Shown here piece by piece: positions 2,242 through 60,892 of a stretch of DNA of 64,000 bases (position 1 is the stretch's first letter; every line of letters begins with the position of its first letter). The DNA lies in assembly GCA_963711465.1 (NCBI GenBank), contig CAVQEG010000001.1, forward strand, positions 2,462,332 through 2,526,331. The letters run 5' to 3'. The DNA comes from Chlorobiota bacterium (GTDB lineage: Bacteria; Bacteroidota; Ignavibacteria; OLB7). The notes under the pieces were generated by a model, which had not been told where the DNA came from, did not search any database, and saw only the letters and a program-made list of their open reading frames with translations. Position numbers and translations under genes: made by a program.

Positions 2242-2473
2242 CATGGCGGAGTACTCCGTGCGTGTGAATGCCGGCACTGCCGTGGTCGCCTCACGCCCCA
2301 CGTGCGGCGATCGGATCGCGAAACGTCGAGCGCACGACGACGCTGCATCGGCGACGGTAATGAATCACTGTGGACGGACTGACACGGGGTGGCGTCGGTG
2401 AGGTCGCGTGAAACGCAGGCAGGCGCATCAGCACTCCGACGGCAATCAATGTACGTCGCAGGTCGATCTTCCG

Positions 2474-3892
2474 TCAGGTCTTCAGCCGAACACCGGGATC
2501 GCTCTGAAGGCGTTCGGCAAGGCACCGGTGAATTCCACCGAACCCTCCATTGGACATGATCACCACCACGTCGCCCGGCTCGAGGTGCTCGTCGAGATGC
2601 TCCACGATCTGCCCGACCTCCGCCACGTACTGCGCCTCGGTGCCGGTATCGCACAGATCGGCGACCAGTCGCTCGGGATCCAGCCGCTCGGAGGCATCCA
2701 GCTCCTCGAGTCGATTCACCTTGGCCAGCAGCACGCGATCGGCAATCGAAAACGCGTCGACGAACTGCCGCTGAAAGACGTTCCGACGCGTCGTGTTGCT
2801 GCGTGGCTCGAATACCGCCCAGATGGTGTTCGTCCGATGACGCTGCCGAAGCGCCCGCAACGTTTCGCGAATCGCCGTCGGGTGATGGGCAAAGTCGTCG
2901 TAGACGCTCACCCCTCTGAATTCTCCCTTCAATTCCATCCGCCGTCGCGTGTTGCGGAACGAGTCGAGGCCGGACTGAATTTCCCCGTCGCTGAGCCCGA
3001 GCCATCGCGCCATGGCGACAACCGCCAGGACGTTTCGAACGTTGAATTCTCCCGCAAGCGCCGTTCGTACTCTCACTTCGTATCCATCGCGTGCGACGAC
3101 GGTGAACGAGGTCGCCTCTGGCTGGTAGTCGATCCGCTCGGCCCGAAGGTCCGCCGTGCGGCCGAGACCGATCGTCGTCACCGGCGCGAAGGACTGCGAG
3201 ACGACCGCCACGGTGTTCGGATCGTCACCATTGGCGACGACCAGTCCGTTGCGGGGCACGAGGTTGACGAGCCGACGGAAGGAGAGCATGATGTCGGCAA
3301 GGGAACCGAAGATGTCGGCGTGATCGAATTCGACGTTGTTGACCAGCAGGACGCTCGGCAGGTAGTGGAGGAATTTGGAGCGCTTGTCGAAGAAGGCGGT
3401 GTCGTACTCATCGCCCTCGAGCACGACGAGTGCACTGGAGGGACGGTACTGCCAGCCCGCGCGGAAGTTCTCCGGAACGCCGCCGATCATGAAGTTCGGC
3501 TCCCGTCCGGCGTTCTGGAGTACCCAGGCGATCATCGACGAGACGGTCGTCTTTCCGTGGGTACCGCTGATGACGACCGAGGTGCGGCCCTCGATGAGTT
3601 CTCGCTTGAGCAGTTCGGGCAGCGAGGTGTAGGGAATCCTTCGTTCGAGGGTGGCCTCGACTTCCTCATCGCCACGCGACATGCGGTTGCCGATGACGAC
3701 CAGTTCGGGCGTGGGATCGAGGTTCCCGGCGTGGAAACCGCGCATGATCTCGACGCCGGCGTCTTCGAGCAGATCGCTCATCGGCGGATAGACGTTGTCG
3801 TCGCTTCCGGTGACGTCGTGACCCATCGCGCGCATCATGAGCGCGACGTTCCCCATGGCGGTACCGCAGATACCGATGAAGTGAATGTGCAT
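2474..3892 (-). CDS. mpl: UDP-N-acetylmuramate:L-alanyl-gamma-D-glutamyl-meso-diaminopimelate ligase (Mur ligase family, Mpl-like)
   Basis: The N-terminus MHIHFIGICGTAMGNVALMMRAMGHDVTGSD is typical of Mpl. It has a Mur-ligase P-loop (VISGTHGKTTVSSM) and a 472 aa length consistent with Mpl. Confidence 0.85.
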   Translation of the reverse strand: MHIHFIGICGTAMGNVALMMRAMGHDVTGSDDNVYPPMSDLLEDAGVEIMRGFHAGNLDPTPELVVIGNRMSRGDEEVEATLERRIPYTSLPELLKRELIEGRTSVVISGTHGKTTVSSMIAWVLQNAGREPNFMIGGVPENFRAGWQYRPSSALVVLEGDEYDTAFFDKRSKFLHYLPSVLLVNNVEFDHADIFGSLADIMLSFRRLVNLVPRNGLVVANGDDPNTVAVVSQSFAPVTTIGLGRTADLRAERIDYQPEATSFTVVARDGYEVRVRTALAGEFNVRNVLAVVAMARWLGLSDGEIQSGLDSFRNTRRRMELKGEFRGVSVYDDFAHHPTAIRETLRALRQRHRTNTIWAVFEPRSNTTRRNVFQRQFVDAFSIADRVLLAKVNRLEELDASERLDPERLVADLCDTGTEAQYVAEVGQIVEHLDEHLEPGDVVVIMSNGGFGGIHRCLAERLQSDPGVRLKT

Positions 3893-17885: not shown

Positions 17886-18067
17886 CTGGACCTCCGACGC
17901 ATCTGGACAATGCGCAAACGTGTAGTGCCCCGTGGGATTGGGCGACATACGCCATGGCCTGGAGGGACCCGTCGCGAGCGGTGTTGGACCTGAAGAACGT
18001 TACGGAGCTGTCGGAGAATCAATCACGGCGGCACTACCATCGGACGTCCGTTAGCGCATGTACTTTT

Positions 18068-18310
18068 CGCACGCCTGGACCGCGTGCGATACGCCGACGG
18101 ATCGGACCCGGATGGTTCGACCACGTGATTTCCGGAAGCTGCGGCTCGTCGTTACTGGACCGTCACCGTACGAACTGGACCGTTCCGTAGGTGTCAAACG
18201 ACACGTAGCGTACGCCGGAACTGAGTTTTTAATGAAAAATCGGGGAATCAGGGAACGATGGTTCTGGACCGTTGGACCTTGGACCGAATCATGACTGGAC
18301 CTGGATACCC
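18068..18310. repeat. Cluster of CTGGACC motifs, at least two in 7-nt hairpin loops
   Basis: 18068-18088 is cgcacgc-CTGGACC-gcgtgcg, a perfect 7-bp stem with the motif as loop. 18168-18189 is tacgaa-CTGGACC(g)-ttc(c)gta. Further CTGGACC/TGGACC copies lie at 18153-18164, 18262-18290 and 18297-18305. About 10 TGGACC copies fall in about 250 bp. Confidence 0.6.
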
Positions 18311-19060
18311 CCTCTGAATGAGGTAGACGGCTGCGAATCTACAACGGCGGGAGTGCAATTGTCAAGAGGTCCGCACGCAAAAAAACTTCGGAGCCCACCC
18401 TGCTCCCTACCCACTAAACGGACAAAACCGTGTAGGACAGGCAAAATTTCCACAAAAGTTGTATTGAGCGGGGCGGCGTCAGCCCGTAGTTTATTTCACC
18501 TTCTCACTGGAGACGGTCGCCATCCCCCCCCGCTGCCTTCATGCGACCCGCCACCAGACCAACACGAATACTTGAGAGGACACGTAGCCAACGACGGGCG
18601 CCGCAACGGCGTCCGGCGACCATTCAGTTTCACCACCACATCGAACCACCGAAGCCCCGACCTGTGCGGTACGGACATCCGGGCGCAGGTCGGGGCGGTC
18701 GGAGGACACGCCCCACCATGATGTCGGGCGGATCGACGGAATCGATCCGTCACCGTTTCTGCTCCGGAGTTCAATCTGCCGGGAGCTGAGGAGACGCCTT
18801 TGGATTACCGGACGTCGCAGGGTCGACGTCCGAAGCACGACGCGTGATTGCTGCGAGCGGACCCTTCCGATCGTTGTACTGCGCGCAACCACCCCCATCC
18901 CTGTTCGGCCGCCCGGCTCTTTCGGAGTGGCCGATAGTGGATGACGATACCGGTCACGGTCAATGATACAGTTGCATTTTCAGTGTCACGTATGGCCGGA
19001 GGCAACTGGTTGCCTCCCGAGCCACGCCCTGTTACACACAGGCTGGGGGAACAAGAAATC

Positions 19061-20287
19061 ATGCCACGCACACGAGCCCGCGTTGTCGAACCCATCGAGA
19101 TGTTGACCAGGCTGGTCAGCGAGTATCCGGAACCGCACAACCAGCGTCCGCTGCGAATGCTGTTGATGCTCAAGCGCGACGAAAAGATGACGCTTCGCAC
19201 CGCTGCGGACAAGCTTGGTGTCTCCGAGCGAACGATTCGCAGGTGGTGGGCGCAGTATCAAGCCGAGGGACCTCTCGTCTTCTGCCAGGCGAAAACGGAC
19301 CGCGAACGCCGGTTGAAGCCCTCGGAGATCGAGGCATTCCGCCAATATGCCCTGAAGCACGGATTCAGCGAACTCAGTGAAGCGCGTGAGTGGATCCTGA
19401 AGGAATTCGGAGCGGAGTACAGCGTCTCGGGAGTCGCCGCGCTGTTGCGCAAGATGGACATCCACTACGACAGCCAGTGGGGCCCCGGCGCAGAAGCACC
19501 CGACTCCACGATCTGCGACGGGATCGACTACGGCCCACTGCTACGATTCATGATGCAGGTGCCGGAGAAGGAGGATATCATTGAGACTTGTCACTCCCTC
19601 CGATCAGCGCTCATGGAGATGTTGCCAGACGTCGACTGGATGATGATCAATATCAACACTAGCCTTGCGCCCCTCAACTCAAGTGAGTACATGTTTGTTC
19701 AGTCAGAAAGTTGCGGCAAGATCGAGTCGTTTCTCTATCACCAACCGGGCAATCTGTCGCCTGACACTCGGCTGCTAGCAACGATCAAACGTCGGAACTT
19801 TCCGGTTGAGCAATACCACCCGATGACCTTTATCCATGTAACCGCCGGTGACTCATATTGCGGCAGCTTCATACTCTGGCGCGATCGTAGCAAGGCCCCG
19901 ATTTCTGAGTCAACACTGAGCACTGTCGATCAGTTGATGCCTCTTTTCCGGTTCATCTTCTCAGACATTGCCCATCGACACGACCGGCGCCAACCGGCGG
20001 GCGTACTCTTCCGATATGTGTTGGGCAGGCTGCACTGTTCCAAGACTCTTACCGAACAGGAGCTCCGAGTAGTCTCATATCGCCTCCTTGGAAACTCATA
20101 CAAGGAGATTGCCGAGCTCCTTCATATCTCAGTTGGCACCGTAAAGAAGCATCTGCACTCTGTTTACACGAAGACCGGCACCAAGAATCATGTCGACCTA
20201 TTTGCACGCCACCTCAGCGGATCCTTGAATGCAGACATAGCGAATCGGCGTCATAACGGGCCATCGTCCAACAATGACGTCGCCTGA
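19061..20287 (+). CDS. Transcriptional regulator with IS630-transposase-like N-terminal HTH module and C-terminal LuxR-type HTH
   Basis: The ORF runs 18941..20287. The likely start is ATG at 19061 (MPRTRARVV...). The N-terminus KMTLRTAADKLGVSERTIRRWWAQYQAEG...RRLKPSEIEAFRQYALKHGFSELSEAREWILKEFGAEYSVSGVAALLRKMDIHY follows the two-HTH pattern of IS630/Tc1 transposase DNA-binding domains. The C-terminus LTEQELRVVSYRLLGNSYKEIAELLHISVGTVKKHLHSVYTKTG is a LuxR/GerE HTH. There is no DDE catalytic domain. The local GC is about 50 % against about 65 % in the flanks. Confidence 0.7.
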   Translation: MPRTRARVVEPIEMLTRLVSEYPEPHNQRPLRMLLMLKRDEKMTLRTAADKLGVSERTIRRWWAQYQAEGPLVFCQAKTDRERRLKPSEIEAFRQYALKHGFSELSEAREWILKEFGAEYSVSGVAALLRKMDIHYDSQWGPGAEAPDSTICDGIDYGPLLRFMMQVPEKEDIIETCHSLRSALMEMLPDVDWMMININTSLAPLNSSEYMFVQSESCGKIESFLYHQPGNLSPDTRLLATIKRRNFPVEQYHPMTFIHVTAGDSYCGSFILWRDRSKAPISESTLSTVDQLMPLFRFIFSDIAHRHDRRQPAGVLFRYVLGRLHCSKTLTEQELRVVSYRLLGNSYKEIAELLHISVGTVKKHLHSVYTKTGTKNHVDLFARHLSGSLNADIANRRHNGPSSNNDVA

Positions 20288-20382
20288 ACGCGTACTCTAG
20301 AGACATGACGCGATCCGATTCGCCAACAATGCATGACATTGTACTATATTAATGGCGTTCTACTTCGGAACGAACCAACGCC

Positions 20383-21633
20383 ATGGGAAACTCGCTAGTC
20401 GTCACTGAAACGGATCAACAGCTTGCAGAACTGGAGCTGGCAAGCGCCGACATGCGTATCCAACAGCGCATTCGCTTCTTACGGCTGCTGAAGAACCGTT
20501 CGAACGGATCTCCCAACGCCGTCGCAATCGAAGTGGGATGTTCGCCTCGTACGGCTCAACGCTGGTGGAATGCGTACCGCGACGGCGGTCTCGATGCGCT
20601 GCTAACCGTGGGGACCCCTGGTCGAAAACGCGATACGAAGCTTCCAGACCAGAAGCTCGATCTTCTGCGGTCCAAACTTGCGTCGGATGGGTTCCACAGC
20701 GTTTCGGAAGCACAGAGCTGGCTCCGCAAAGAGCTTGAGGTCGAGTATAGCCGGACCTCTGTGTGGAATATCCTGCGATCAGAGAGTGGGCGGCCTGCTC
20801 GCTGGACAGCTGCGGCCTCGGGACAGTACTTCATCGATTCACCACTTGCGCCACCACCGAATCAGGCACCGCTGTCACTGGCGTCTGACATGATTTCGTT
20901 TCTCAATGCGCTTCCGACGTCCTCCGACGCCAAGACCTGGGTTGGCGAGTTCCGGGAGGCACTTAGCAGGATGTTGGGCGACGTCGACCGCATATCGATC
21001 AACGTCAATATGAACTGCAATCTGCGAGATCCCGAAAGCTATACGGTTAGCCTCACGGTGCGGCAACACCTTTCGTCAGACGATGAAGGAGACGCCGCTG
21101 TCGACGTACAACCGGGGGCGCGTAACGAAGGCGCGACCGCATCAGAGGAGCTCGTGGCGGACCTTCGCCGGAAGGGCTTTCCCTTGGACGACTTCCATGA
21201 GCCAACCTGCTTTGACTATTACTATGCAGATGTTGCATATCTCGGCACGATGATTCTTTGGCGCGATCGGACGAAGACTCCGATCTCTGAAACAACTATT
21301 CAGACGGTGTCTCAACTACAACCCTTCATCGTGTTCGCCCTGAGCGACCTTGTGGTTCGAAATCAGCTGGAACGGCCGATCGACAGCGTGTTCAACGATT
21401 CGCTTCAGATTCTGAGAGATGAGGCGGGCTTGACGCCGTCAGAGTCCCGGATCGTGGTGCTCCAGTTGTTGGGACATTCATATAAGGACATGGCCGACGT
21501 GCTGGCAGTCTCTGTGGATACCGTGAAGAAGCACGTGAAGCAGATCCACAGGAAGACCAACACCCGCGGTCAGTCCGAGCTTTTCGCAAAGTACTTCACT
21601 TCGCGGATCAGTCTGCGCGAAGAGGAGGGATAG
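20383..21633 (+). CDS. Paralogous transposase-HTH / LuxR-HTH regulator
   Basis: The N-terminus AIEVGCSPRTAQRWWNAYRDGG...PGRKRDTKLPDQKLDLLRSKLASDGFHSVSEAQSWLRKELEVEYSRTSVWNILR is the same IS630-like pattern. The shared middle motif is YLGTMILWRDRTKTPISETTIQTVSQLQPF, against YCGSFILWRDRSKAPISESTLSTVDQLMPLF in the first copy. The C-terminal LuxR HTH is LTPSESRIVVLQLLGHSYKDMADVLAVSVDTVKKHVKQIHRKT. Confidence 0.7.
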   Translation: MGNSLVVTETDQQLAELELASADMRIQQRIRFLRLLKNRSNGSPNAVAIEVGCSPRTAQRWWNAYRDGGLDALLTVGTPGRKRDTKLPDQKLDLLRSKLASDGFHSVSEAQSWLRKELEVEYSRTSVWNILRSESGRPARWTAAASGQYFIDSPLAPPPNQAPLSLASDMISFLNALPTSSDAKTWVGEFREALSRMLGDVDRISINVNMNCNLRDPESYTVSLTVRQHLSSDDEGDAAVDVQPGARNEGATASEELVADLRRKGFPLDDFHEPTCFDYYYADVAYLGTMILWRDRTKTPISETTIQTVSQLQPFIVFALSDLVVRNQLERPIDSVFNDSLQILRDEAGLTPSESRIVVLQLLGHSYKDMADVLAVSVDTVKKHVKQIHRKTNTRGQSELFAKYFTSRISLREEEG

Positions 21634-21865
21634 CCCGAGAAGTTCCTACCACCCTCAATCGTCAGCAATCGCCGCCGAACCTAACGCTCCACCCCCGGCC
21701 CGGAACCGCAATTTCTGCGATTTTGCACAGATTCAGTCGAAAGGTCCACCCCGGAATCAACCTTTCAGTTGACAGATCTCCACCCAACCGCCCTCTACCT
21801 TTGCACCCGTAGTCAACCCGAAGAATTCCCCAAATGTGTACTTGTCGGCCTTGACGTCACGGGGC

Positions 21866-21873
21866 TATGTTTG
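21866..21873 (+). promoter_or_regulatory. Bacteroidetes-type sigma-A -7 element (TAtgTTTG) upstream of 21926 gene
   Basis: TATGTTTG is a perfect match to the Bacteroidetes TAnnTTTG -7 consensus. It sits about 45 nt upstream of the ATG at 21926. TTG-containing candidates for the -33 element lie 16-27 nt upstream. Confidence 0.45.
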
Positions 21874-22465: not shown

Positions 22466-22507
22466 GCAGTCAGTCAGATTGAAAACCCAACAGATTCAGC
22501 CGATTGA

Positions 22508-22546
22508 GACCCCGCTCGCTGCCTTGTCCGGGCAGTGAGCGGGGTC
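22508..22546 (+). terminator. Stem-loop (intrinsic-terminator-like) downstream of 21926..22465
   Basis: gaccccgctcgctgcc-ttgtccg-ggcagtgagcggggtc, a 16-bp stem with one mismatch. No U-tract follows, which is common in this lineage. Confidence 0.5.
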
Positions 22547-22689
22547 AAAGCGGCACACGGATCGCCTCCACGTCCCGGAGGTGAGGGTTCAGACAGACGA
22601 GAGGTCCCGAGCAATGCCGAGAAGGTCCGCAGGTCCGACCTACTGCGCTAACTCCCGAACCGTTCGTTCCGTTTGAGTCACAAGGTGTG

Positions 22690-23960
22690 CCCAGCACTCG
22701 ATGCGGGGAAGAGGTCACCCCGTCTTGAGACGACGTGCCCGACAGGCATTGGGGTAGTATGAGAAGTCGGCGTCCTGCTCGTACTACCCCAATGGAATCC
22801 GCGGGCAAGTCCAAAGAAAGTTCAAGGGTCCAACGGTCCACGGTCCAGGTCCATTCGCCAATACCTGCCAAATCCCGTTACCCACTGCCTTGACAACCAA
22901 GAAGATGTTTCAGAGTGCCCTCTCTGTAACGAGCTCGAGCGAACGCCATGAGGTAAGATTGCTTCGCTTTTGAGCACCATGCCCGACCGGAGCGAAGGGG
23001 AACAGGTTGCCCCGAGTTGCGCTCCATGCCCATTGAGTTTCAGGGGACGGTATGAAGGGCCAATGCCCACGGCACTTCATACCGCCCCTTCGAGACACGG
23101 GCGAGCAGGGTAGAGATGAGAGGCCTTCTGCTTGAGAGTTTCGAACTGTTCATTGTCTTTGTTTGTGCCCCTTCTGCCGGCCTGATGTGGGAAAGAGGTC
23201 ATCCCATCCAGGCCCACAGTGCCCAGAGTGCCCCTCCCCGGTGCCCACCGGCGACGGGCCGTGCCCAACAGGTTGCGTCTGGTGCCCTTCAGACGAAACC
23301 AGTGCCCAAACGGAGCCGCGGCGGCGATGAGGTCTGCTTCCGCTGGCTCCAGTGCCCAACAACTCTGCGGGACGGTATGAGGTTGGCTCGATCCCACAAT
23401 CGAGTGTCTCATACCGTCCCGAACGGGCCGGGGGGCCGAACAGACAATTCGAGCAAATTCGCAGAACGTGTGTGATGTTCTTTGGTTTTGTGCCCAGACA
23501 GTTCGGGAGCCCGGGATCACGAGGTCCGATTCCGCACTCTCGATTCAGTGCCCAGCACGCTCATCGTGGGAAAGAGGTCATCCCATGTGAGCAATGTGCC
23601 CAACATGGCTCGGCCGGGAATGAGGTCTCCCCGTCGAGTTGTGCTCAACCCGGAATCGCCGGCTTATGAGGTCAAGCCCGTGATTCCATGCCCAGAAGGC
23701 GGGCAATCGAGGTTACCGCCGGTCCCACAGCCGGTTCGTCTCGTACGCTCGTCATGATGCTCGGCAGGACGTTGAGGTCAGTTCCTGCCGGGTGATGTGC
23801 CTATCGGAATGCTCCGGATGAAGGAAGAGGTCACCTTCGTCCCGAGCAGTGTGCCCAGCAACAGCTCGGGGCGGTCGCCAACACCACTGGCAACCGCCCC
23901 ATTTTTTTGCCCTGTTCCGTCGCCGACCGCCAGTCGCCGTGCCCACAGCCGCCGCTTCCT
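22690..23960. repeat. Non-coding region saturated with GTGCCCA (about 19 copies) and GAGGTCA (about 9 copies) motifs, degenerate ~350-bp tandem units with conserved hairpins
   Basis: GTGCCCA[A/G] recurs with about 20-bp spacing in 23218-23352 and occurs elsewhere in the region. The 18-mer GGGAAAGAGGTCATCCCA is repeated exactly at 23187-23204 and 23567-23584. Hairpin stems GGGACGGTATGA[A/G]G...C[T/C]TCATACCG[T/C]CCC occur at 23044-23093 and 23374-23424. There is no credible ORF across about 1.5 kb. Confidence 0.6.
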
Positions 23961-24024
23961 CCGCTTCCCCTATTTTTGTCCTCAGATACGACCCATCTCT
24001 CTCGATACCATCTGAGGTTCTCCT

Positions 24025-25817: not shown

Positions 25818-28310
25818 CTACCCTGTTGGTTTTCCGTCACGATCCGGATTGATCGCCCGCAGCGTCTCGGTCCGCACCCAAGCGGCGGCAATCCGCAGCT
25901 GCGGGTACTCGACAGCCCCGCCCAGCAGCGCGCGGAGCTCGCGCAGCGTCGCCCTCGGCATCCGCTCGAGTTCGTCGCGCACCCGCCGAACGATCCCTCC
26001 GGTGACGAAGTGCTCGATCGGCATCGCCGCACCCGCCTCCAGAAGCTCCTGCACGTGGTTGCTCACCGTCGATGGCTGCAGTGCCGAACGCCCCGCTATT
26101 TCCTCGAGAGAACACCCCTCGCCCCAGAGTTGATACGTCCGAAGCAGCCGAATCGGAAGCTCCCGCTCGAACGGACTTGCCGCCCTCGGCTCGTCCTCGT
26201 CCCGTTGCTCGCCTGCGCCGGAAATACTGAATACTGTTAAAGAAAGATGGCGCACCTTCGCGCGACCAGCAGACGTGGCGCGAACCACCGGCCGCATCGT
26301 CGCGCTGCGTTCGAGCAACCGCCGCTCGAGCAACCACTCCGCCAGTCGTGCCAGTTCCGTTCGCTCAATGTCCGCAAGTGCTCCGAATCGCGGATACCGT
26401 TCCAGTTCGGCCGATGAAGACGTTGCAGGCCGCACACCGCGAAGGATGTCAACGAGGGTCATCTTCCCGAATCGACCGCCAAGTTCGACAGCGGCGGCCA
26501 GCAACAGGTCGGCGGCCCGCCGGTGTCGCGGGGAGAGTTCGGCGTCGAAACGCGCGACCGGCGTCGGATCGACGTCGATTCGCGTGCAGCAATCACAGCG
26601 ACCACAGGTGGAATCGGCGATTTCCGCACAGAAATACTCGAGAATCACGTTTCGCCGACACGTCGTTCCGTTGACATATCGCACCATCGCATCGAGCTTC
26701 CGAAGCGACCGTTCCCGCCCCGATTCAATGGCCGCTTCATCGATCCGAACGTTGCGGGCCGGGAGCCGTTCGGCCAGGAACTGGACTCCACGACCGGGAG
26801 TCGGAGGAGTGAACTCGAGCAGACCCGCCGCCATGAGCGCGCGCAGGTGGCGTTCGAATGCCACCGGTGACAGCGAGTAGCGCCCTGCGACATCGGTGAA
26901 GTTGAAGAACGTCTGCTGGGTGAGCGCCGCGCCGCCCAGCGTCCGTAGCAGAGCGACGATGGCCGACCTGCGCTCCTCATCGCGCGTTCGCTCGAAATAC
27001 CGCTGAATTTCGTCGCTTCCGGCAATGAACCGCACAGCGGCGAGGCGATCGGCCCGTACGAACCGCAGAACACCGTTACGCTCGAGCACGTTGAGCACGC
27101 TCGACAGCGCCGCCACGTGAATTTTCGCACGCGCCGCAATCAAGGTGCGGTCTGGCACGAAGACGCCCTCACAGCGGCTTCCAAGGCCCACCTGGAGCAC
27201 ATCCCAGAGTGCATCGTAGACGGCGTTGACCTGATCCCGGGTCGGGCAGCTGGTTCGAATGAAGAATTCCTGGAGTCGCCGCTCTCCTCCATCGGCCAGC
27301 AACGTGCAGGCAGCGGGATTTCCATCACGGCCGGCACGCCCTGCCTCCTGGTAGTACGCCTCGATCGAGCCCGGCATGTCGTAGTGCACCACCTGCCTGA
27401 CGTCCGGCTTATCGATCCCCATTCCGAAGGCGTTGGTCGCCACGATCACGCGCGCCCTGCCGGAAATAAAGGCCTCCTGCGCCGCTCGGCGGTCTGCATC
27501 CTTCATCCCGGCATGGTAGATCGTGACCGGCAGCCGCTCGGCGTGAAGCATCGTACCGACGCGCTCGACCGACCGTCTGGTGCCACAGTACACGATCACC
27601 GACCCCTGATCTGCTCCCGGCGCCGTGAGCATGCGGCGCAGTGTCGCATCCTTGTCGGACCCCTGAGCAACGGAATAGGCCAGATTCGGCCGATCGAAAC
27701 CGCGAACGAACCGCCGCGGACGTTTCAGGCCCAACTGGCGGACGATGTCTTCCTGGACGGAAGGCGTGGCAGTGGCGGTCAGGGCGATGACGGGAGGACG
27801 GGCAAAGTGCTCCAGCGCTTCGCGAAGCTTGAGGTAGCTCGGGCGGAAGTCATGGCCCCACTCGGAGATGCAGTGTGCCTCGTCAATGGCGAACAGCGCG
27901 ATGCGAACGCCGGCCATCTGCTCGAGGAAGCGGGGGTTCTCGAAACGTTCGGGAGCAACGTAGACGAGCGAGTAGAGTCCGTGGCGGATGTCGTTCAGCC
28001 GCTGGGAGAGTGCGCCGAATTCGAGTGTGGAGTTGATGGTCGTTGCGCGGATGCCCCGTTGCTCAAGTGCATCGACCTGATCCTTCATCAGGGCGATGAG
28101 CGGCGAAACGACGACGGTCACACCCCGAAGCAGCAGAGCCGGCACCTGGTAGCAGAGCGACTTGCCACCGCCGGTCGGCATGACGACCAGCGTGTCATCG
28201 CCGTCGAGGACCGACTGGATGATCTCGCGCTGAGCGGACCGAAAGTCTTCGAAACCAAAGAAGCGCCTCAGCGCCTCGGCTGGCGACGACGGACGAGCTG
28301 CCTCGAGCAT
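25818..28310 (-). CDS. recQ: RecQ-family ATP-dependent DNA helicase with long C-terminal extension (HTH-like)
   Basis: FGFEDFRSAQREIIQSVLDGDDTLVVMPTGGGKSLCYQVPALL carries helicase motif I. A DEAH box is present (FAIDEAHCISEWGHDFRP). The RQC zinc motif is CRRNVILEYFCAEIADSTCGRCDCC. Trimmed to ATG at 28310, giving 831 aa, about 230 aa longer than E. coli RecQ. Confidence 0.85.
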   Translation of the reverse strand: MLEAARPSSPAEALRRFFGFEDFRSAQREIIQSVLDGDDTLVVMPTGGGKSLCYQVPALLLRGVTVVVSPLIALMKDQVDALEQRGIRATTINSTLEFGALSQRLNDIRHGLYSLVYVAPERFENPRFLEQMAGVRIALFAIDEAHCISEWGHDFRPSYLKLREALEHFARPPVIALTATATPSVQEDIVRQLGLKRPRRFVRGFDRPNLAYSVAQGSDKDATLRRMLTAPGADQGSVIVYCGTRRSVERVGTMLHAERLPVTIYHAGMKDADRRAAQEAFISGRARVIVATNAFGMGIDKPDVRQVVHYDMPGSIEAYYQEAGRAGRDGNPAACTLLADGGERRLQEFFIRTSCPTRDQVNAVYDALWDVLQVGLGSRCEGVFVPDRTLIAARAKIHVAALSSVLNVLERNGVLRFVRADRLAAVRFIAGSDEIQRYFERTRDEERRSAIVALLRTLGGAALTQQTFFNFTDVAGRYSLSPVAFERHLRALMAAGLLEFTPPTPGRGVQFLAERLPARNVRIDEAAIESGRERSLRKLDAMVRYVNGTTCRRNVILEYFCAEIADSTCGRCDCCTRIDVDPTPVARFDAELSPRHRRAADLLLAAAVELGGRFGKMTLVDILRGVRPATSSSAELERYPRFGALADIERTELARLAEWLLERRLLERSATMRPVVRATSAGRAKVRHLSLTVFSISGAGEQRDEDEPRAASPFERELPIRLLRTYQLWGEGCSLEEIAGRSALQPSTVSNHVQELLEAGAAMPIEHFVTGGIVRRVRDELERMPRATLRELRALLGGAVEYPQLRIAAAWVRTETLRAINPDRDGKPTG

Positions 28311-28358
28311 GGATTGATGGAGCGATCGTTGGGGACGAAACGTTCCCAATATAAAAAA

Positions 28359-28608
28359 CGGAGGCTGGTGGTCCAGACCAGCCTCCGTGTCCTTGAACAA
28401 TCAGTACTGAAGCATCGAGAGAGAAGGTGAGCCGGTGGTCCAGACCGGCTCACCCATGTTCTCATCGATCGCGCGCCCAGGGTATTCCCCGTGATGATTC
28501 CGACCGCGAATGTAGTGCCTCGAATTCCGGTGGTCCAGACCGGGATATTCGGTGAGCACTACGGACCGGAATCGGGGTCCGTTCGTCGTGGTCCGAACGA
28601 GCGAACGG
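28359..28608. repeat. Tandem hairpins with variable stems and conserved 7-nt loop GGTCCAG (CTGGACC on the other strand)
   Basis: 28359-28385 is ggaggctggT-GGTCCAG-Accagcctcc. 28425-28453 is ggtgagccggT-GGTCCAG-Accggctcacc. 28526-28542 is ccggT-GGTCCAG-Accgg. 28579-28608 is ccgttcgtcgT-GGTCCGA-Acgagcgaacgg. Stems differ in sequence but stay complementary, which is compensatory change. Related aGGTCCAGG copies lie at 28647-28655 and 28752-28760. Confidence 0.65.
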
Positions 28609-28983
28609 CTGTACGCGCATGACTATCAACGGTGTCAGCGAGCGGGAGGTCCAGGCCAGCTCATCTGACGTATCGGGCGACGTGGGCACGGGCCGATCCG
28701 GCAAACCGGAACTCGACCGTTAAGAATGCAGCATACCGGGTTCGAGGTGGGAGGTCCAGGCCCAGCCCGAGCGGTGATCTGCGATGTCACCCTGATAGTC
28801 AAAGAACAACGAACGAGGGTGTCCCCCAGCTGCCTTCTCCCCGTGATACTCGATACGGAAACCGCGTGGTGACTCGTTCCGTATCTCGACCGCGAGGGGC
28901 ACACTGGCCGCTCATTCGTCGCGGTTACGGATGCAAAGCTAGGGTTGCGGGCGGTGGAGATCCGTCAGCCAAAAGGTGGAGAA

Positions 28984-29064
28984 GGGGGGTGGATTAGGGG
29001 TATGAATCCCCCTCGACCCTGCCGAAATTCAGCGAATTTCGCGGAATCAAACGATCCACCCCCC
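28984..29064. other. Nested stem-loop element downstream of the MalT-like gene
   Basis: The outer 10-bp inverted repeat is GGGGGTGGAT...ATCCACCCCC. It encloses hairpins aggggtatgaatcccct and cgaaattc-agc-gaatttcg. It lies in the 3' region of the minus-strand gene that ends at 29127. Confidence 0.4.
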
Positions 29065-29126
29065 GAAGCAGCCGCGCAGTCGGCCGGCCGGGGCCGATGC
29101 GCATTGCCGGGAACGTGGAACGCCCC

Positions 29127-31898
29127 CTACAGCAGGTTCAGCTCGCGCGCCCTGGCAAGCGCCTGGGTGCGGGACTCGACATCGAGCTTGCTGTAGAGGT
29201 TGTTGATGTGGGTCTTGACGGTACTGACCGAGATGTAGAGAGTGTCGGCGATGGTAGCATTTGATTTTCCATCCGCGATCAACTTGAGGACTTCGACCTC
29301 GCGATCGCTCAGTGGGGTCGGAAGATCGGCGGCCAACCGCGCTGCGGTCTCGCCTGCCGGCTCCTCCTTCGCCGACTCCTCACCTGCGCCCGGCTTGATG
29401 CCGAACGCCTCGAGCAGACGATCAAGGTAGTGGAGGGAAACGGTGGCCGGAATGTCCGTCTCCTCGTCCAGTCGCGCCGTGCGCACTACAAGTAAAAGTT
29501 CCTTGAGAGTCTTGCCCTCCGAAATGAATGTGCGAACATAACCCTCCGGCTCTGCCAGAACAAGCGCGCGGGACAATGTTCCGACCGATTGTTCATTTTC
29601 ATCCTGAAGGTTGAGGGCGATCGACTGCAGAACGAGGATGCGAATCATCGCGTCCACCTCCCCCCCGGACTCGGCGGTCTCCAACAGCGGCGCGAGCAGC
29701 TCGAGAGCGTCGACTGTCTGTCCGCGTGCAATCATCAGTCGTGCCAGCGCCATGTCCTCGAGCATGCCGACACCTGCCGGACGATGCCGCGTCGGATCGC
29801 TTACCCGTTCGAGAATCCGCTCGTGCGCCCAGTGCTCCGCTCCCTCGAGATCGCCCTGCGACAGAAGGACCTCCATGCGAAGTGCGACCAGCGGTCCGAT
29901 CAGTTCCCGCGATGCACCGTATCCACGAAGAATTCCTCGGGCCTCGTCGATCGCGTCGAGCGCGCCGCCGAGATCTCCCCTCGTCTGATGGACCCGAGCG
30001 AGCAACACCCGAGAGTCCCGGATGATCTCGACGTCGTCAACCCGCCGAGCGTCCTTGAGCCCCTCGGCCAGATACCGCATCGCGCTCTCCAGATCGTTCC
30101 ACTCGTAGTGGATCTCGCCCAGCCCCACGTTCGCCACCGCGGCGATCTCGACCATATCACCGCCCGCGACCGGCTGTTTCTCAACTGTCTGCAATGCCTC
30201 CTGGAACGTCGCCGATGCCGTGCGCAACTGTCCCATTCGCATCTGCAGTCGCGCCAGTTGCGGCAGCGCATCCAGCGCACCGAATGGTGCCGCCGGTTCT
30301 GCCTGACCGTCCGCAGCCCGAACCGCGCCGGGCAGCGCACCGGAGGTGCCGCCGTTGTCCCGCCGACCGATCGTCGATTCGAGCGCGATGGTTCCGTGAT
30401 GAATCTGCTCCTCCTCGGTCTGCCTGACCGCCTCGTGAGCAAGCTCGCGCGCACGGTTTACGTCCCCCCGAATCCGCGACAGGAACGTGTTTACCGTTGC
30501 GGCCCGATTGAGAATCTCCTCGAGGTCGTCTCCAGCCATCAGCTGCGCGCAATGGCGCGCATACTCCAGGTACTTCTCCACGTTCTGCAGCCGACCCGCC
30601 AGCAGCAACGTCCAGGCGAAGGCGAGCGACAGTCGGGGACGGTATCGAACCTGCTCCTCCGGCAGTGCCGCCATCCATCCGCTCAGCACCTCGAGCTCGC
30701 GTCGGGAGAGTAGCGTCTCCGCATGCCGTTCGATCAGATCCGCTGCCTGCTCGAATTCCTCGCCCCGCAACAGATGATCGGCCGCCTCGCGGACGTACCC
30801 GTTGTCGCGGTACCACCACCCTGCCCTGCGGTGCAGATCGATCGCCCGCGCCCCTCCGCGCTGCCCTAGCCGGGAGCGCAGCACCTCGGCGAACAGATGA
30901 TGGTACCGATACCAGCATCGAGCATCGTCCAGCGGAACGATGAACAGGTTGTCGTCCTCGAGCCGCTCGAGAATACTCTGGGAGTCGTCGCGCCCCGCCA
31001 CCGCGTCGCAGACATCCGCACAGAGCGAATCCAGGACGCAGGTATCCAGCAGGAACTGCCGGACCGTTTCCGGCTGGCGCTCATACACGTCGCCGACGAG
31101 ATAGTCGAGCACGTACCGGGGAATTCGCTCGGAGCCGACTCGGAAATCCGAGCCCGACTGCATCGACAGCGCCATCAGCTGAAGACCGGTCGGCCACCCC
31201 TCCGTCCGCTTCTCGATCTCGGCTACCACCGATGCCGGCAGCTCTTCACCCAGCACACCGTTGAGGAACCCCACCGCCTCTTCGAATGTGAATCGTAGAT
31301 CTCCGGTCCGCAGCTCGGCCAGCTCGCCAGCAGCACGCAGTCGAGTCAGACGAAGCGGAGGTGCGCTGCGGCTGGCGATGTAGAGATGCAGCTGCGCAGG
31401 CATGCGCTCGATGAAGAACGCGAGCGATGCGTGGATGTCCTCGGAGCGGATGTGATGGTAGTCGTCGAGAACGAAGGCGATCGTGCCGGTGACCGAGGCA
31501 AGCTCGTTGATGAGGTCGGTCAACACCCGATTCACATCCAGCGGCGACTGGCCGTAGATGTGCTCCAGAGCTTCCGCTCCGAGCCCCGGCACCTGCAGCG
31601 TCTGCAGTGAACCGATCATGTACGCCCAGAAGCGGTCGAGCCGGTTGTCGCTCTCATCGAACGACACCCACGCGACCTTCTGCTTGCTCTGCTGAACCCA
31701 GGTGCTGAGGAGGGTGGTCTTTCCGTAACCCGATGGTGCCGAAATGGTGGTGAGGCGGCAGTTCAGTCCGTCGCTGAGCCGCATCATCAGTGCTGGTCGC
31801 GCCACGAGGTCGGACCGCGTTCGCGCGATATGGAACTTCGTGCTGAGCAACGGGAACCGCCCCGTCGTGCCTACAGCACGCTCGCCGTCCAAGGCCAT
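29127..31898 (-). CDS. MalT-like LuxR-family transcriptional regulator (STAND NTPase + TPR-like + LuxR HTH)
   Basis: The N-terminal P-loop is TTISAPSGYGKTTLLSTW. There is a long helical-repeat middle. The C-terminus is LSDREVEVLKLIADGKSNATIADTLYISVSTVKTHINNLYSKLDVESRTQALARARELNLL. The length is 923 aa. Confidence 0.85.
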   Translation of the reverse strand: MALDGERAVGTTGRFPLLSTKFHIARTRSDLVARPALMMRLSDGLNCRLTTISAPSGYGKTTLLSTWVQQSKQKVAWVSFDESDNRLDRFWAYMIGSLQTLQVPGLGAEALEHIYGQSPLDVNRVLTDLINELASVTGTIAFVLDDYHHIRSEDIHASLAFFIERMPAQLHLYIASRSAPPLRLTRLRAAGELAELRTGDLRFTFEEAVGFLNGVLGEELPASVVAEIEKRTEGWPTGLQLMALSMQSGSDFRVGSERIPRYVLDYLVGDVYERQPETVRQFLLDTCVLDSLCADVCDAVAGRDDSQSILERLEDDNLFIVPLDDARCWYRYHHLFAEVLRSRLGQRGGARAIDLHRRAGWWYRDNGYVREAADHLLRGEEFEQAADLIERHAETLLSRRELEVLSGWMAALPEEQVRYRPRLSLAFAWTLLLAGRLQNVEKYLEYARHCAQLMAGDDLEEILNRAATVNTFLSRIRGDVNRARELAHEAVRQTEEEQIHHGTIALESTIGRRDNGGTSGALPGAVRAADGQAEPAAPFGALDALPQLARLQMRMGQLRTASATFQEALQTVEKQPVAGGDMVEIAAVANVGLGEIHYEWNDLESAMRYLAEGLKDARRVDDVEIIRDSRVLLARVHQTRGDLGGALDAIDEARGILRGYGASRELIGPLVALRMEVLLSQGDLEGAEHWAHERILERVSDPTRHRPAGVGMLEDMALARLMIARGQTVDALELLAPLLETAESGGEVDAMIRILVLQSIALNLQDENEQSVGTLSRALVLAEPEGYVRTFISEGKTLKELLLVVRTARLDEETDIPATVSLHYLDRLLEAFGIKPGAGEESAKEEPAGETAARLAADLPTPLSDREVEVLKLIADGKSNATIADTLYISVSTVKTHINNLYSKLDVESRTQALARARELNLL

Positions 31899-32137
31899 TG
31901 GATCAAGAACAGGTGGGTCGGAGAGTTTCCCCGCGGTAGAGGTTTCGGCCGTGCCGCGCGAAAGCTATGGACGGGTGTGATGGTTTCCAAAGCCAGGAAC
32001 GACAAAATGTGCGCCGATTCACACATGTAGTGCCGAAGCCCGCCCGCCCCCGCCGCGACCGACCCGGCACCATTTGGCCCGACAGGGTCACCCGCAGTAT
32101 TTTGGCGCCAGTTGTTTTTATAACCATGTGAACCACA

Positions 32138-53880: not shown

Positions 53881-55815
53881 ATGGTGACAGAAATGAGACA
53901 ATTGACGCTGAAACCTCAGGCCACCTCGCATCCGGCGAGGCGACGGCGCCCACGGCTCGAGCGCATGAGCAGAGTGGTGGCGGGTGTACTGGCGCTGACG
54001 GGACTTGCCGTTGCTGCAACCGACTCGGCGCAGGCGCAGCCAAAGCGGATCGACCCACGCGCGCCCGGCGTGGTGACTGGGCTGCCGGAGTTGGGGCGGA
54101 TGTATGGGCTGGTCAATGGGTCGGGCGCCGAGAACTTCGGCGGGTCCTACATCGGCGGCGGAGATGGCATTACCGCCCTGGGGGATATTTCCGGGGACGG
54201 CATCAATGACTTCGCCGTCTGGCACCGGCGGACCGACACGGCTGGCGCCCCGCAGGAGCTGCTGATCTACCACGGGGTGCGCGGCGGCCTTCCGGCCTCG
54301 ACGAGCGGACAGCGGGTTCGCGTCAGCGAGGCGCCGTCGTACATCACGTTGCTCGGAAGCGGGGATTTCGATGGGGACGGCTACGGCGACCTCGTCACAC
54401 AGGTGGAGATTGAGGGCGATACATCTGCCGGTAACGATTCGATGGGCCGCTCGATCTCGCGCCTGGTCATTTTCTGGAACGACGGGCACGGGTACTACTC
54501 GCTCTCGGACACGACGCGACTGGAGTGCGACGCACAAATGTGGCTGGGGATTTTCGCCGGCCTGGGTCAGGATTTCGACGGGGATGGTGTCGACGACCTG
54601 CTCGTGCGGAACTCCGGCGGATTCTCCAATGGCTATGTCGTGGCGCAGCCTGCGCTGCGGATCTACCGCGGTCACCGAGACGGCCGCTGGGGTCGCGACG
54701 GACTCTCGCGACGTGCGGACTGGCGGAAGTGGAATATTCTCCCGAGCGGACCGGATCTCGATGTGGTCCGGATCCTCGACCAGGACTGCGATGGAAACCC
54801 CGATGTGGTGTTCATCGACGATAGCCACGCCGTCGGCGTTGGTGGGCACGTGGGCGTGCTCTATGGCCGCTCCGGTGCCTTCCCCGATACGACACAACTC
54901 GAGGTTATCGATCTGTCCGCTATCGATGGGCTGACCATGCAGTTTGCCGACGTCACCGGCGATGGGACCTTCGATCTGCTTGCCAACTGCCTCAGATTTC
55001 GGGATGACGGCCGCATGGACGGACGCATTCGTATCTACGCCGGAAGACCCGGGCAGAGACTCATCGAGCAGTTCGGCTCCGGTGACGATGATCCGATCCA
55101 GGGGCACGGGTGGTGGCGGCGTCCGTGGGCGGAGGTGCTCTCGCCCGACCAGCTGCACGAGGACGGCTGGGGAGGCAGCGGCGGAGGGCCGCTCTACGAC
55201 ATGGGCGACGCCAACCTCGACGGCGCCGATGAGATCTGGACGGCGTCGTGGCCACTGATCATCGGGTATTCGGGTGGGCGTGGCATCGACTCGCTGATCG
55301 ATGTGGTGATCCACTTCCCCGGCACCGACATCATGAGCATCGCACGACTGGGAGACATCGACGGGTCGGGGGAACCGACGGTGGCGATCGGGTACAACAA
55401 CTATCCGAATGACAATGGCTTTCCGGGTGCCATCGTGTTTCTGAAGCCGGACCAGTCGGTTCCGACGTGGACGCCGCACCCTCGGCTGCTGCCGCACCTG
55501 CCGGGAGAGTTCTGCGGTGCGACCTCGGCAGCGGTGGAGGTGCCAGCACGCACCTCCGCGAATGCTCTGGCAATCCGGGTGATTCCGAATCCGGCTGCTG
55601 AGACGCTGCGCGTGGAATGGACCGCACCAAATAGCGCAGGCACCGCCAGGATCGAACTGGTTGATGAGAACGGAAACGTGGTTCTGGACCAACCGGTCGG
55701 TGCGACTGCGGGTTTGGCCACGGTCAATACAACGCCCATTGCGGCGGGGACGTACTTCCTTCGGGTCGTGTTCGACGACACCACGACCAGAGCCGTATCC
55801 GTTCGGATTCGGTAG
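53881..55815 (+). CDS. FG-GAP-repeat T9SS-sorted surface protein (array copy B)
   Basis: The 644 aa protein has a signal peptide (RMSRVVAGVLALTGLAVAATDSAQAQ; the alternative start is at MSRVV). The Asp-rich repeats are GDISGDGINDFAV, GDFDGDGYGDLV, DFDGDGVDDLLV, DQDCDGNPDVVFIDD, DVTGDGTFDLLAN and DANLDGADEIWT. The CTD is VIPNPAAETLRVEWTAP...IELVDENGNVVLDQ...AAGTYFLRVVFDDTTTRAVSVRIR. Confidence 0.8.
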   Translation: MVTEMRQLTLKPQATSHPARRRRPRLERMSRVVAGVLALTGLAVAATDSAQAQPKRIDPRAPGVVTGLPELGRMYGLVNGSGAENFGGSYIGGGDGITALGDISGDGINDFAVWHRRTDTAGAPQELLIYHGVRGGLPASTSGQRVRVSEAPSYITLLGSGDFDGDGYGDLVTQVEIEGDTSAGNDSMGRSISRLVIFWNDGHGYYSLSDTTRLECDAQMWLGIFAGLGQDFDGDGVDDLLVRNSGGFSNGYVVAQPALRIYRGHRDGRWGRDGLSRRADWRKWNILPSGPDLDVVRILDQDCDGNPDVVFIDDSHAVGVGGHVGVLYGRSGAFPDTTQLEVIDLSAIDGLTMQFADVTGDGTFDLLANCLRFRDDGRMDGRIRIYAGRPGQRLIEQFGSGDDDPIQGHGWWRRPWAEVLSPDQLHEDGWGGSGGGPLYDMGDANLDGADEIWTASWPLIIGYSGGRGIDSLIDVVIHFPGTDIMSIARLGDIDGSGEPTVAIGYNNYPNDNGFPGAIVFLKPDQSVPTWTPHPRLLPHLPGEFCGATSAAVEVPARTSANALAIRVIPNPAAETLRVEWTAPNSAGTARIELVDENGNVVLDQPVGATAGLATVNTTPIAAGTYFLRVVFDDTTTRAVSVRIR

Positions 55816-55950
55816 AGCGGCGGTGCGTCGTCGCCGGCAATGGCTGCGGCGCATGTGGATCACCGTCGGGCCATGAATACTGAGACAACGCGGCGCAATG
55901 GCGGCCGTAATCGGGCAGGACCGTGTGTCGTAGGTCGTAGAATAATACCG

Positions 55951-56045
55951 TTTGCTATTGGTCAGCGGCGGACGTACGTTTTCGCCGCACGAGACGCCCG
56001 GCGTATCCCCCCACACCACGCGCCGCCGTGCATTGAACGCGGCGG
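55951..56045 (+). promoter_or_regulatory. Conserved leader element upstream of array copy C (same element upstream of copies A, B, D, E)
   Basis: TTTG (55951-54) is followed 20 nt later by TAcgTTTT (55975-82), fitting the Bacteroidetes -33/-7 pattern. The conserved box CGCCGCACGAGACGCCCGGCG lies at 55984-56004. The hairpin ccgccg-tgcattgaacg-cggcgg lies at 56023-56045. Homologous positions are copy A 51326-51376, copy B about 53600-53710, copy D 58291-58385 and copy E about 60620-60715. Confidence 0.5.
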
Positions 56046-56223
56046 GGGGTCGCATACGCCGCGGAAGCACCGACCGCCCAACGCCGACGGCCGCAGCTAT
56101 CGAAACCTTGATCGATTCGCAGTGCTACCTTCGGAGATGGTAATGGCATCGCGGGTAATGTGTTCGTCAGTGTGAGGAGAATGGACGCGTGGCCGGATCG
56201 CGAGCATGGAGTACAGTCATTGA

Positions 56224-58155: not shown

Positions 58156-58563
58156 AGCGGCGGTGCGTCGTCGCCGGCAATGGCTGCGGCGGATGTGGAT
58201 CACCGGCGGGCCATGAATACTGAGACAACACGGCGCAATGGCGGCCGTAATCGGGCAGGACCGTGTGTCGTAGGTCGTAGAATAATACCGTTTGCTATTG
58301 GTCAGCGGCGGACGTACGTTTTCGCCGCACGAGACGCCCGGCGTATCCCCCCACACCACGCGCCGCCGTGCATTGAACGCGGCGGGGGGTCGCATACGCC
58401 GCGGAAGCACCGACCGCCCAACGCCGACGGCCGCAGCTATCGAAACCTTGATCGATTCGCAGTGCTACCTTCGGAGATGGTAATGGCATCGCGGGTAATG
58501 TGTTCGTCAGTGTGTGGAGAATGGACGCGTGGCCGGATCGCGAGCATGGAGTACAGTCATTGA

Positions 58564-60486: not shown

Positions 60487-60892
60487 AGCGGCGGTGCGTC
60501 GTCGCCGGCAATGGCTGCGGCGGATGTGGATCACCGGCGGGCCATGAATACTGAGACAACACGGCGCAATGGCGGGCGTAATCGGGCAGGACCGTGTGTC
60601 GTAGGTCCTAGAATAATACCGTTTGCTATTGGTCAGCGGCGGACGTAGGTTTTCGGCGCACGAGACGCCCGGCGTATCCCCCGCACCACGCGCCGCCGTG
60701 CATTGAACGCGGCGGGAGGGCGCATACGCCGCAGAAGCGCCGACCGCCCCACCGGACGGCCGCAGCTATCGAAACGTTGATCGATTCGCAGTGCTACCTT
60801 CGGAGATGGTAATGGCATCGCGGGTAATGTGTTCGTCAGTGTGTGGAGAATGGACGCGTGGCCGGATCGCGAGCATGGAGTACAGTCATTGA

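Follow-up and report, generated by a model that had tools for sequence, protein, structure and literature searches.

The region that separates recQ from the gene of a MalT-like regulator on contig CAVQEG010000001.1 of a Chlorobiota bacterium, analysed here within a stretch of 64,000 nucleotides (the window), contains seven hairpins at 28358-28770, six of which present (C/U)(U/C)GGACC in their apical loop on stems that differ from one hairpin to the next. This array, here called cluster C, was established from the sequence, with an inverted-repeat finder and by folding each hairpin, and it bears out an initial annotation that had described a series of hairpins with GGTCCAG loops. Cluster C is an RNA-level feature of the minus strand and is neither a known repeat nor an Rfam family. 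Given that one GGA-centred loop recurs on six differing hairpins, the array looks like a decoy RNA for an RNA-binding protein. By analogy, it may be a small RNA (sRNA) that titrates a protein in the manner of the Csr/Rsm systems; the initial annotation had raised such a CsrB/RsmZ-like multi-hairpin RNA and this is still the leading model, albeit one held tentatively, as plausible rather than probable. It is the best-supported reading in view of the same heptaloop on covarying stems in two phyla, the extra conserved GGA motifs in Phycisphaerae (Planctomycetota) and the decoy-like architecture with its terminator.

A constant loop on differing stems

The hairpins of cluster C are as follows, with coordinates in the minus-strand sense and, where stated, the score of a covariance model built from 22 hairpins of two phyla:

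H1, 28770-28742, minus strand: interrupted stem of 5+4 pairs, 9-nt loop CCUGGACCU; covariance model 19.3 bits
H2, 28669-28634, minus strand: interrupted stem, 9-nt loop CCUGGACCU; -15.2 kcal/mol, z -2.5; covariance model 24.2 bits
H3, 28608-28579, minus strand: loop UCGGACC; -14.4 kcal/mol, z -2.2; covariance model 17.6 bits
H4, 28582-28561, minus strand: 7-bp stem ACGGACC/GGUCCGU, with GGACC in the stem and not in the loop
H5, 28543-28527, minus strand: 5-bp perfect stem, loop CUGGACC, with an interrupted outer helix to 28558-28516; covariance model 27.6 bits
H6, 28455-28425, minus strand: 11 perfect pairs (12 in the fold), loop CUGGACC; -22.9 kcal/mol, z -4.4; covariance model 30.5 bits
H7, 28388-28358, minus strand: 12-bp perfect stem, loop CUGGACC, followed by U6; -23.0 kcal/mol, z -5.2
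28852-28885, minus strand: 5'-proximal, motif-free hairpin GAUACGGAA...UUCCGUAUC, a 9-bp perfect inverted repeat

The fourth hairpin of the initial annotation, with the loop GGTCCGA, corresponds to H3, whose loop reads UCGGACC in the minus sense, and its two aGGTCCAGG hairpins correspond to H1 and H2, with their longer loops on interrupted stems. The stem length of 9-11 bp that it gave for three hairpins does not hold for the third, H5, whose stem is 5 bp, compared with 12 bp in H7 and 11 perfect pairs in H6. In the same way, the stems are of unrelated sequence in their outer parts, as had been stated, but the innermost five pairs of the three best hairpins, H5-H7, are held in common: these read C(C/U)GGU / ACC(G/A)G, with GGTGGTCCAGACC occurring three times, so that the conserved unit at this point is the 13-mer GGUCUGGACCACC.

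Five exact copies of GGTCCAG lie on one strand within 390 nt of cluster C, against an expectation of ~0.05 for such a stretch, taken from shuffles of the window that gave 8.9 copies per 64 kb on both strands. CTGGACC is present 18 times in the window, and four of these copies are directly enclosed by a perfect stem of 5 bp or more. An additional site, AAGGACA at 28399-28393 (minus strand), is unpaired and lies just 5' of H7. The trinucleotide GGA occurs 16 times in 580 nt compared with 8.8±2.6 in shuffled sequence, or 13 times in 453 nt compared with 6.5±2.2; the fold of the whole RNA has 6 of the 16 GGA in hairpin loops, and six hairpins place GGA at loop positions 3-5.

The inverted-repeat finder and a comparison of stems yielded no direct-repeat family for the hairpin copies, whose outer stems are unrelated, in agreement with the earlier statement that this is not a repetitive extragenic palindromic (REP) element. 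Within the window no Rfam family was matched at gathering score, and a search of 28250-29200 at E<=10 returned only weak, unrelated matches. A literature search for CUGGACC turned up only small interfering RNA and microRNA sequences.

Strand, terminator and candidate promoter of the predicted RNA

The features that flank the hairpins and delimit the RNA are:

29127-31898, minus strand: MalT-like STAND/LuxR regulator gene (Pfam), immediately upstream of the RNA and in the same orientation
25818-28310, minus strand: recQ, downstream of the RNA
28941-28934, minus strand: candidate Bacteroidetes-type -7 box TAGCTTTG (TAnnTTTG), ~150 nt upstream of H1, with a predicted start near 28927
21796-21803, 21866-21873 and 23971-23978, plus strand, and 28934-28941, minus strand: copies of TAnnTTTG

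A terminator scan scored H7 and the UUUUUU behind it as an intrinsic terminator of the minus strand, the feature spanning 28388-28348; no U-tract follows any of H1-H6, and H7 alone of the seven is an intrinsic terminator. One of the pairs of H1 is G·U and can form in the minus sense only, the other sense having a C·A mismatch at this position. The 461-nt minus-strand RNA folds with a z-score of -4.1, the flanking MalT-like gene and recQ are both on the minus strand, and coding-like codon bias is absent from every open reading frame of the hairpin region. The function at the level of RNA, with recognition through the loop, that the initial annotation had argued for is thus upheld by the minus-strand terminator and the G·U pair of H1, as well as by the same loop on covarying Phycisphaerae stems and by CsrB-like GGA statistics.

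Given the H7 terminator, the recQ promoter box just after it and the TAGCTTTG box upstream, cluster C most likely gives rise to a non-coding RNA of ~0.45-0.58 kb, predicted to run on the minus strand from about 28927 to about 28350. The motif TANNTTTG (TAnnTTTG) has four matches in 64 kb, all of them intergenic and co-oriented with the downstream unit, and a TTG-N21-TAnnTTTG promoter at 21842-21873 is conserved with the orthologous site of a syntenic relative, L012; the organism appears to use Bacteroidetes-type promoters. The assignment of the TAGCTTTG box itself is tentative because the -33 TTG is badly positioned. Alternatively, the RNA could be a processed 3' untranslated region (3'UTR) of the MalT-like mRNA, since the MalT-like gene has no clear terminator, none that is convincing having been found between its stop codon (29127) and the hairpins. 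The U-tract of H7 runs into the recQ promoter box TATATT at 28353-28348 (minus strand), and this box is also kept upstream of recQ in L012 and in a second syntenic relative, L115. As recQ keeps its own conserved TATATT after the terminator, the hairpins are not a recQ leader, and the attenuator that had been suggested for them is set aside.

In L115 and L116, recJ and recQ are directly adjacent and divergent, and in L012 a cut gene lies 158 nt upstream of recQ. The MalT-like gene and the hairpin region, which here lie between recQ and recJ, therefore constitute an insertion (28311-32137), and the hairpin region is absent from all three of these syntenic relatives (CTGGACC was searched in L012 alone, where none was found). 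Judged from its RecQ homologues and a Por_Secre_tail domain, the organism belongs near Kapabacteria/Ignavibacteria. The nearest RecQ homologue is 65% identical, and a scan of genome contigs with RecQ returned only relatives of at most 51% identity. The gene of the closest homologue of the MalT-like protein (71% identity) likewise has behind it a gap of 825 nt in which no gene is called, and then a co-oriented gene.

The same loop module in Phycisphaerae

Metagenomes were scanned for two copies of GTCTGGACCAC 55-85 nt apart, which identified 102 loci; two of these, L013 and L081, are true analogues of cluster C and the rest are tandem coding repeats or eukaryotic satellites. Both analogues contain an RNA of ~230 nt in which two hairpins carry GGUCUGGACCACC, a third has the loop CUGGACA and the intrinsic terminator is separate from all three. 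The RNA is positioned upstream of, and divergent from, a ccoNO fusion gene, and it converges on a 16S gene that is unlinked. Homologues of ccoNO assign these loci to the Phycisphaerae, and further Phycisphaerae loci (L118-121, L123 and L125-127) contain homologous RNAs in which 2-3 hairpins carry the CUGGAC(A/C) loop, mostly as CUGGACA, on entirely different stems; the RNA is absent from L122 and L124. The Phycisphaerae RNAs have in common the conserved single-stranded motifs GACAGGA, CAGGGA and CGGAAAG and a terminator. Representative positions are:

L013, ~1005-1250, minus strand: Phycisphaerae RNA
L081, ~2705-2960, minus strand: Phycisphaerae RNA
L118, ~940-1180, minus strand: Phycisphaerae RNA
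L123, ~2225-2430, minus strand: Phycisphaerae RNA
L125, ~1570-1845, minus strand: Phycisphaerae RNA

The initial annotation had taken the changing stems of cluster C as compensatory substitutions. Differences between paralogous hairpins are not strictly such, and the term holds only where hairpins of related metagenomic loci are orthologous: from L013 to L081, one stem pair changes from A-U to G-C, which is compensatory, and two others become G·U pairs that are tolerated in the CUGGACC sense only. The comparative test for covariation proposed at that time finds no orthologous region in L012, L115 or L116; covarying stems are seen in the Phycisphaerae sRNAs. Across 22 hairpins from both phyla, 82% of the stem cells are paired, compared with 49% in shuffles and 32-44% with slid partners. 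In the same alignment G13, G14, A15 and C16 are invariant, most of the loops having been selected by this very motif.

Like cluster C, the Phycisphaerae sRNAs combine the heptaloop CUGGAC(A/C), several hairpins, unrelated covarying stems, extra GGA motifs and an intrinsic terminator, and those of L013 and L081 have the 13-mer of H5-H7 in common with it. Unlike cluster C, they are ~200-280 nt long, carry mainly CUGGACA, end in a terminator hairpin that is free of the motif, hold a fixed position by ccoNO and the unlinked 16S gene and belong to another phylum; overall sequence homology with the RNA of the window was not found. They contain 7-10 GGA per 206-276 nt, including CAGGACA, AGGGACA, AAGGACA and CTGGACA sites, and have no match in Rfam. 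The predicted RNAs upstream of ccoNO form an undescribed sRNA family and are candidate CsrA decoys.

Two likenesses to 16S rRNA were noted post hoc. The top of the GGUCUGGACCACC hairpin resembles the 3' end of 16S rRNA, GG-CUGGAUCACC (L081 2140-2157), at 11 of 12 positions with one gap, which may be a coincidence, and CUGGACCUCC of H1 and H2 resembles the 16S rRNA 3' tail with UCA deleted. Mimicry of this tail (CUGGAUCACCUCC) was considered and rejected, the likeness being post hoc and a U-to-C difference breaking the GAUCA element. Likewise, 16S rRNA as a conserved target of the loops was rejected given that the 16S of L081 itself reads UGCCCGGAC at ~318-326, where the sequence in most bacteria is presumably GGUCCAGAC.

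Related motif clusters and an antisense alternative

The motif of cluster C, or its complement, is also clustered elsewhere in the window:

17886-18308, plus strand: cluster A, ten (C/U)UGGAC(C/A) copies, mainly tandem and single-stranded, e.g. CTGGACCgtTGGACCtTGGACC
18067-18089, plus strand: cluster A hairpin, 8 bp, CUGGACC
17898-17914, plus strand: cluster A hairpin, 5 bp, CUGGACA
22827-22853, plus strand: cluster B, four tandem GGTCCA, 6-8 nt apart (complement of UGGACC)
22470-23906, plus strand: non-coding array of 1.4 kb between a small secreted-protein gene and an aminotransferase gene

The link that the initial annotation had drawn between the hairpins and a cluster at 18.1 kb is supported. 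The covariance model matched only cluster C (minus strand) and cluster A (plus strand) in the window at E<0.05. On its plus strand, cluster A has 24 GGA in 435 nt compared with an expectation of 8.9±2.5, and one GUGCCCC motif. Its sole promoter- or terminator-like signals belong to the minus strand, a hairpin at 18406-18390 and a TTGACA-N18-TAGATT site at 18365-18336, which sit just upstream of all motif copies. Cluster A is located between an OmpA/PD40 gene and a divergent HTH_23+GerE regulator gene, and its first copy overlaps GGAGG, the ribosome-binding site of the former on the opposite strand. The OmpA/PD40 gene may also be preceded by an upstream open reading frame of 6 codons (AUG 17903-17901, stop overlapping the main AUG).

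Cluster B is embedded in the plus-strand non-coding array, which ends in a plus-strand terminator, and when inverted it is much like the tandem block at 18264-18286. The array itself has ~10-12 hairpins of variable stem with the loop (A/U)GAGGUC, separated by a (CA)GUGCCC(A) linker that is present 15 times, and a strong terminator at about 23867-23906, and a shorter array with the GAGGUC loop, GUGCC linkers and a terminal terminator is found at the syntenic position of L012 (4953-5616). The GAGGUC loop is complementary to GACCUC of the H1 and H2 loops. The GUGCCC motif is sense-specific and common to cluster C (minus strand) and the array at 22.5-23.9 kb (plus strand); in that sense, therefore, cluster C carries UGGACC and the array carries GGUCCA.

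These complementary clusters raise the main alternative, that the RNA may be an antisense regulator, the loops of the minus-strand RNA acting as seeds that would pair with GGUCCAG sites of other RNAs. Two targets are proposed: cluster A in the minus sense, where the OmpA/PD40 gene has its putative long 5' leader and its ribosome-binding site, and the GGUCCA tandem of cluster B (plus strand). CUGG conforms to the YUNR U-turn, clusters of the complementary GGUCCA(G) do exist, and most copies of the motif in clusters A and B are free of structure, as expected of targets. Over 10 nt, CUGGACCUCC of the H1/H2 loop is perfectly complementary to GGAGGUCCAG (17895-17886, minus strand), which lies directly before the ATG at 17885. 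The terminator-like hairpin and promoter-like site of the cluster A minus strand, the terminator at the end of the plus-strand unit that holds cluster B and the sense-specific GUGCCC of cluster C and the array are also to be counted in its favour. Nevertheless, this alternative is unlikely for several reasons: first, mRNA targets specific to one lineage hardly explain the same heptaloop in an unrelated phylum, and the sequence upstream of ccoNO in L081 has neither GUCCAG nor GGUCCAG, GGTCCA being present on the plus strand of that locus only as the antisense of the sRNA itself. Second, the conserved single-stranded GGA motifs of the Phycisphaerae RNAs fit protein binding better. Third, the 3-nt extension of the match at the ribosome-binding site is weakly significant, since the site belongs to cluster A, and cluster A can be a target only in the minus sense, for which the strand signals conflict.

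Two adjacent paralogous regulator genes lie on the plus strand at 18941-20287 and 20383-21633; their products have an N-terminal HTH_23/HTH_28 (transposase-like helix-turn-helix, HTH) and a C-terminal GerE/Sigma70_r4 HTH, and an orthologue is present in L012. The TTG-N21-TAnnTTTG promoter, which is conserved with L012 together with a TTCCNCAAA element upstream of it, resembles 18446-18496, 5' of the first of the HTH genes. At 53881-62797 (plus strand), four tandem paralogous genes with a period of ~2.34 kb encode FG-GAP/Por_Secre_tail (T9SS-sorted) proteins, and an in-frame GGTTCTGGACCAACC conserved in each paralogue explains four remote motif hits.

Other alternative explanations

The hairpins could instead act in cis, as a 3'UTR or terminator array that stabilises or terminates the MalT-like mRNA and insulates recQ, comparable to REP elements and bacterial interspersed mosaic elements (BIME), the constant loop being a by-product of duplication. 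No convincing terminator separates the MalT-like stop codon from the hairpins, H7 is a terminator, and the inner five stem pairs common to H5-H7 are compatible with duplication. However, duplication would copy the stems, and it is the outer stems that are unrelated and the loop that is invariant. In addition, a U-tract follows H7 only, and the loop is seen again in cluster A as well as in the Phycisphaerae sRNAs, where the terminator is separate and free of the motif. A cis-acting array is thus improbable.

It is also conceivable that the motif is read in double-stranded DNA, as TGGACC boxes that would be operators of a LuxR-type regulator; the candidates are the MalT-like protein and the two HTH_23+GerE proteins (18941-21633). 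The motif clusters lie in three intergenic regions beside regulator genes and in both orientations, the relatives lack the motif as well as the MalT-like gene, and the TGGACC of the H7 loop falls at the -35 position relative to the recQ TATATT. Against this, operators would not account for the precise placement of an asymmetric 7-nt site in the loops of hairpins whose arms, of 5-12 bp, are unrelated, and substitutions of the G·U type and terminator-ended homologues in another phylum would go unexplained. Furthermore, the tandem spacing of 6-8 bp (18265/18273/18280; 22827/22835/22842/22848) is off helical phase, and operators of this kind are highly improbable.

Hairpins that an HUH enzyme would target in single-stranded DNA, which the initial annotation had listed, or a REP/RAYT-like mobile repeat, are scarcely credible: the likeness is one of general shape, hairpins with a conserved loop, whereas the vicinity has no gene for a transposase, Rep or RAYT, the stems lack conservation, the copies have no conserved flanking tetranucleotide and form no repeat family, and the strand-specific G·U evidence and the terminator point to RNA.

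Proposed role of the cluster C RNA

As a decoy, the RNA of cluster C would start downstream of the MalT-like gene and end at the H7 terminator, before the recQ promoter. Its working parts would be the six GGA-centred loops (CUGGACC, once UCGGACC, and twice within CCUGGACCU) together with the unpaired GGA sites, and it would act in trans as a multivalent decoy that binds and titrates a protein reading the GGAC-containing loop. We infer that this protein would be of the CsrA/RsmA type or a functional analogue, and that its titration would free mRNAs otherwise under its control.

A number of observations weigh against this assignment. Cluster C has no sequence or covariance-model similarity to the Csr/Rsm families of Rfam, and its loops read CUGGA or UCGGA in place of the ANGGA core, which is matched only by the unpaired AAGGACA at 28399-28393. 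Where Csr/Rsm RNAs have a loose ANGGA, the loop of cluster C is the fixed heptamer CUGGACC, invariant at all seven positions in the window, a stricter pattern than known Csr/Rsm RNAs show. CsrA typically binds hairpin loops that contain GGA and is widespread in Planctomycetota, but it is scarce, with few representatives, in Bacteroidota, the host phylum (PMC13443453). Genes for CsrA (searched by tblastn), Hfq or RRM proteins were found neither in the 64-kb window nor in the loci examined. Two further sites of the window have clusters of the complement GGUCCA(G) in apparent sense orientation, which a pure protein decoy does not explain, and the cross-phylum match came from a motif search and is in part a matter of ascertainment.

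A broader proposal is that the CUGGAC(A/C)-heptaloop RNAs form an undescribed multivalent class that spans phyla (Kapabacteria-like Bacteroidota and Phycisphaerae), being either the first CsrA-antagonist sRNAs outside Proteobacteria or decoys of another loop-reading protein, with a local network that includes the three motif arrays; this is possible but on the whole somewhat unlikely. In such a network, the CUGGACC loops at 28.4 kb, the (C/U)UGGACC repeats at 18.1 kb and the GAGGUC-loop array with its four GGUCCA at 22.83 kb may sponge each other as well as a protein. To our knowledge, protein-titrating decoy sRNAs are well established in Gammaproteobacteria only, and we know of no CsrA-antagonist sRNA in Bacteroidota. 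Outside that class, the protein FliW is regarded as the antagonist of CsrA, and little is known of post-transcriptional control in lineages related to Bacteroidota. The cluster C RNA and the Planctomycetota sRNA family are concrete and directly testable candidates; they might carry the decoy principle into further phyla, or point the way to a loop-reading protein not described before, and the fixed heptaloop provides a simple handle for genome-wide searches.

Comparison with known systems

REP and BIME arrays resemble cluster C as clustered intergenic hairpins between co-oriented genes; they are genome-wide repeats with conserved stems and flanks, whereas in cluster C the stems differ and the loop is conserved. 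An ANTAR-type antitermination target was considered and rejected: such targets have two hexaloop hairpins, with A and G at loop positions 1 and 4, and a terminator overlaps the second hairpin, whereas the loops of cluster C are 7 or 9 nt with CUGGACC. Multi-loop antisense sRNAs (the C-rich loops of S. aureus RNAIII; CopA, RNAI and Sok) also present one short conserved loop on several stable hairpins. The loops of CopA, RNAI and Sok start with YUNR, as does that of cluster C (CUGG), and complementary sites that include a ribosome-binding site are a further likeness; in 1999 Franch et al. reportedly described the YUNR U-turn in antisense RNA recognition loops and in anticodon loops. Pairing by the cluster C loops is predicted from base complementarity, and the loop of cluster C occurs in an unrelated phylum as well.

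CsrB/CsrC and RsmX/Y/Z are the decoys by which CsrA/RsmA is titrated in Gammaproteobacteria, and cluster C has in common with them an end at an intrinsic terminator, GGA in apical loops on non-conserved stems and an unpaired GGA beside the terminator. The GGA density is comparable, at 21 in 359 nt for E. coli CsrB, 24 in 435 nt for cluster A (plus strand) and 16 in 580 nt for cluster C. The sites of CsrB include CAGGATG, CAGGACA, AAGGACA, AGGGACA, CTGGATG and CTGGAAT, so that CUGGA (twice) and NAGGACA/AGGGACA are found in CsrB itself, and the site types described here resemble these. A GacA/UvrY box (TGTAAG-N6-CTTACA), which is not expected outside Gammaproteobacteria, had no match within 3 mismatches near any cluster. 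In summary, cluster C departs from the Csr/Rsm group in homology and in the ANGGA core, and it would work most like a Csr/Rsm decoy.

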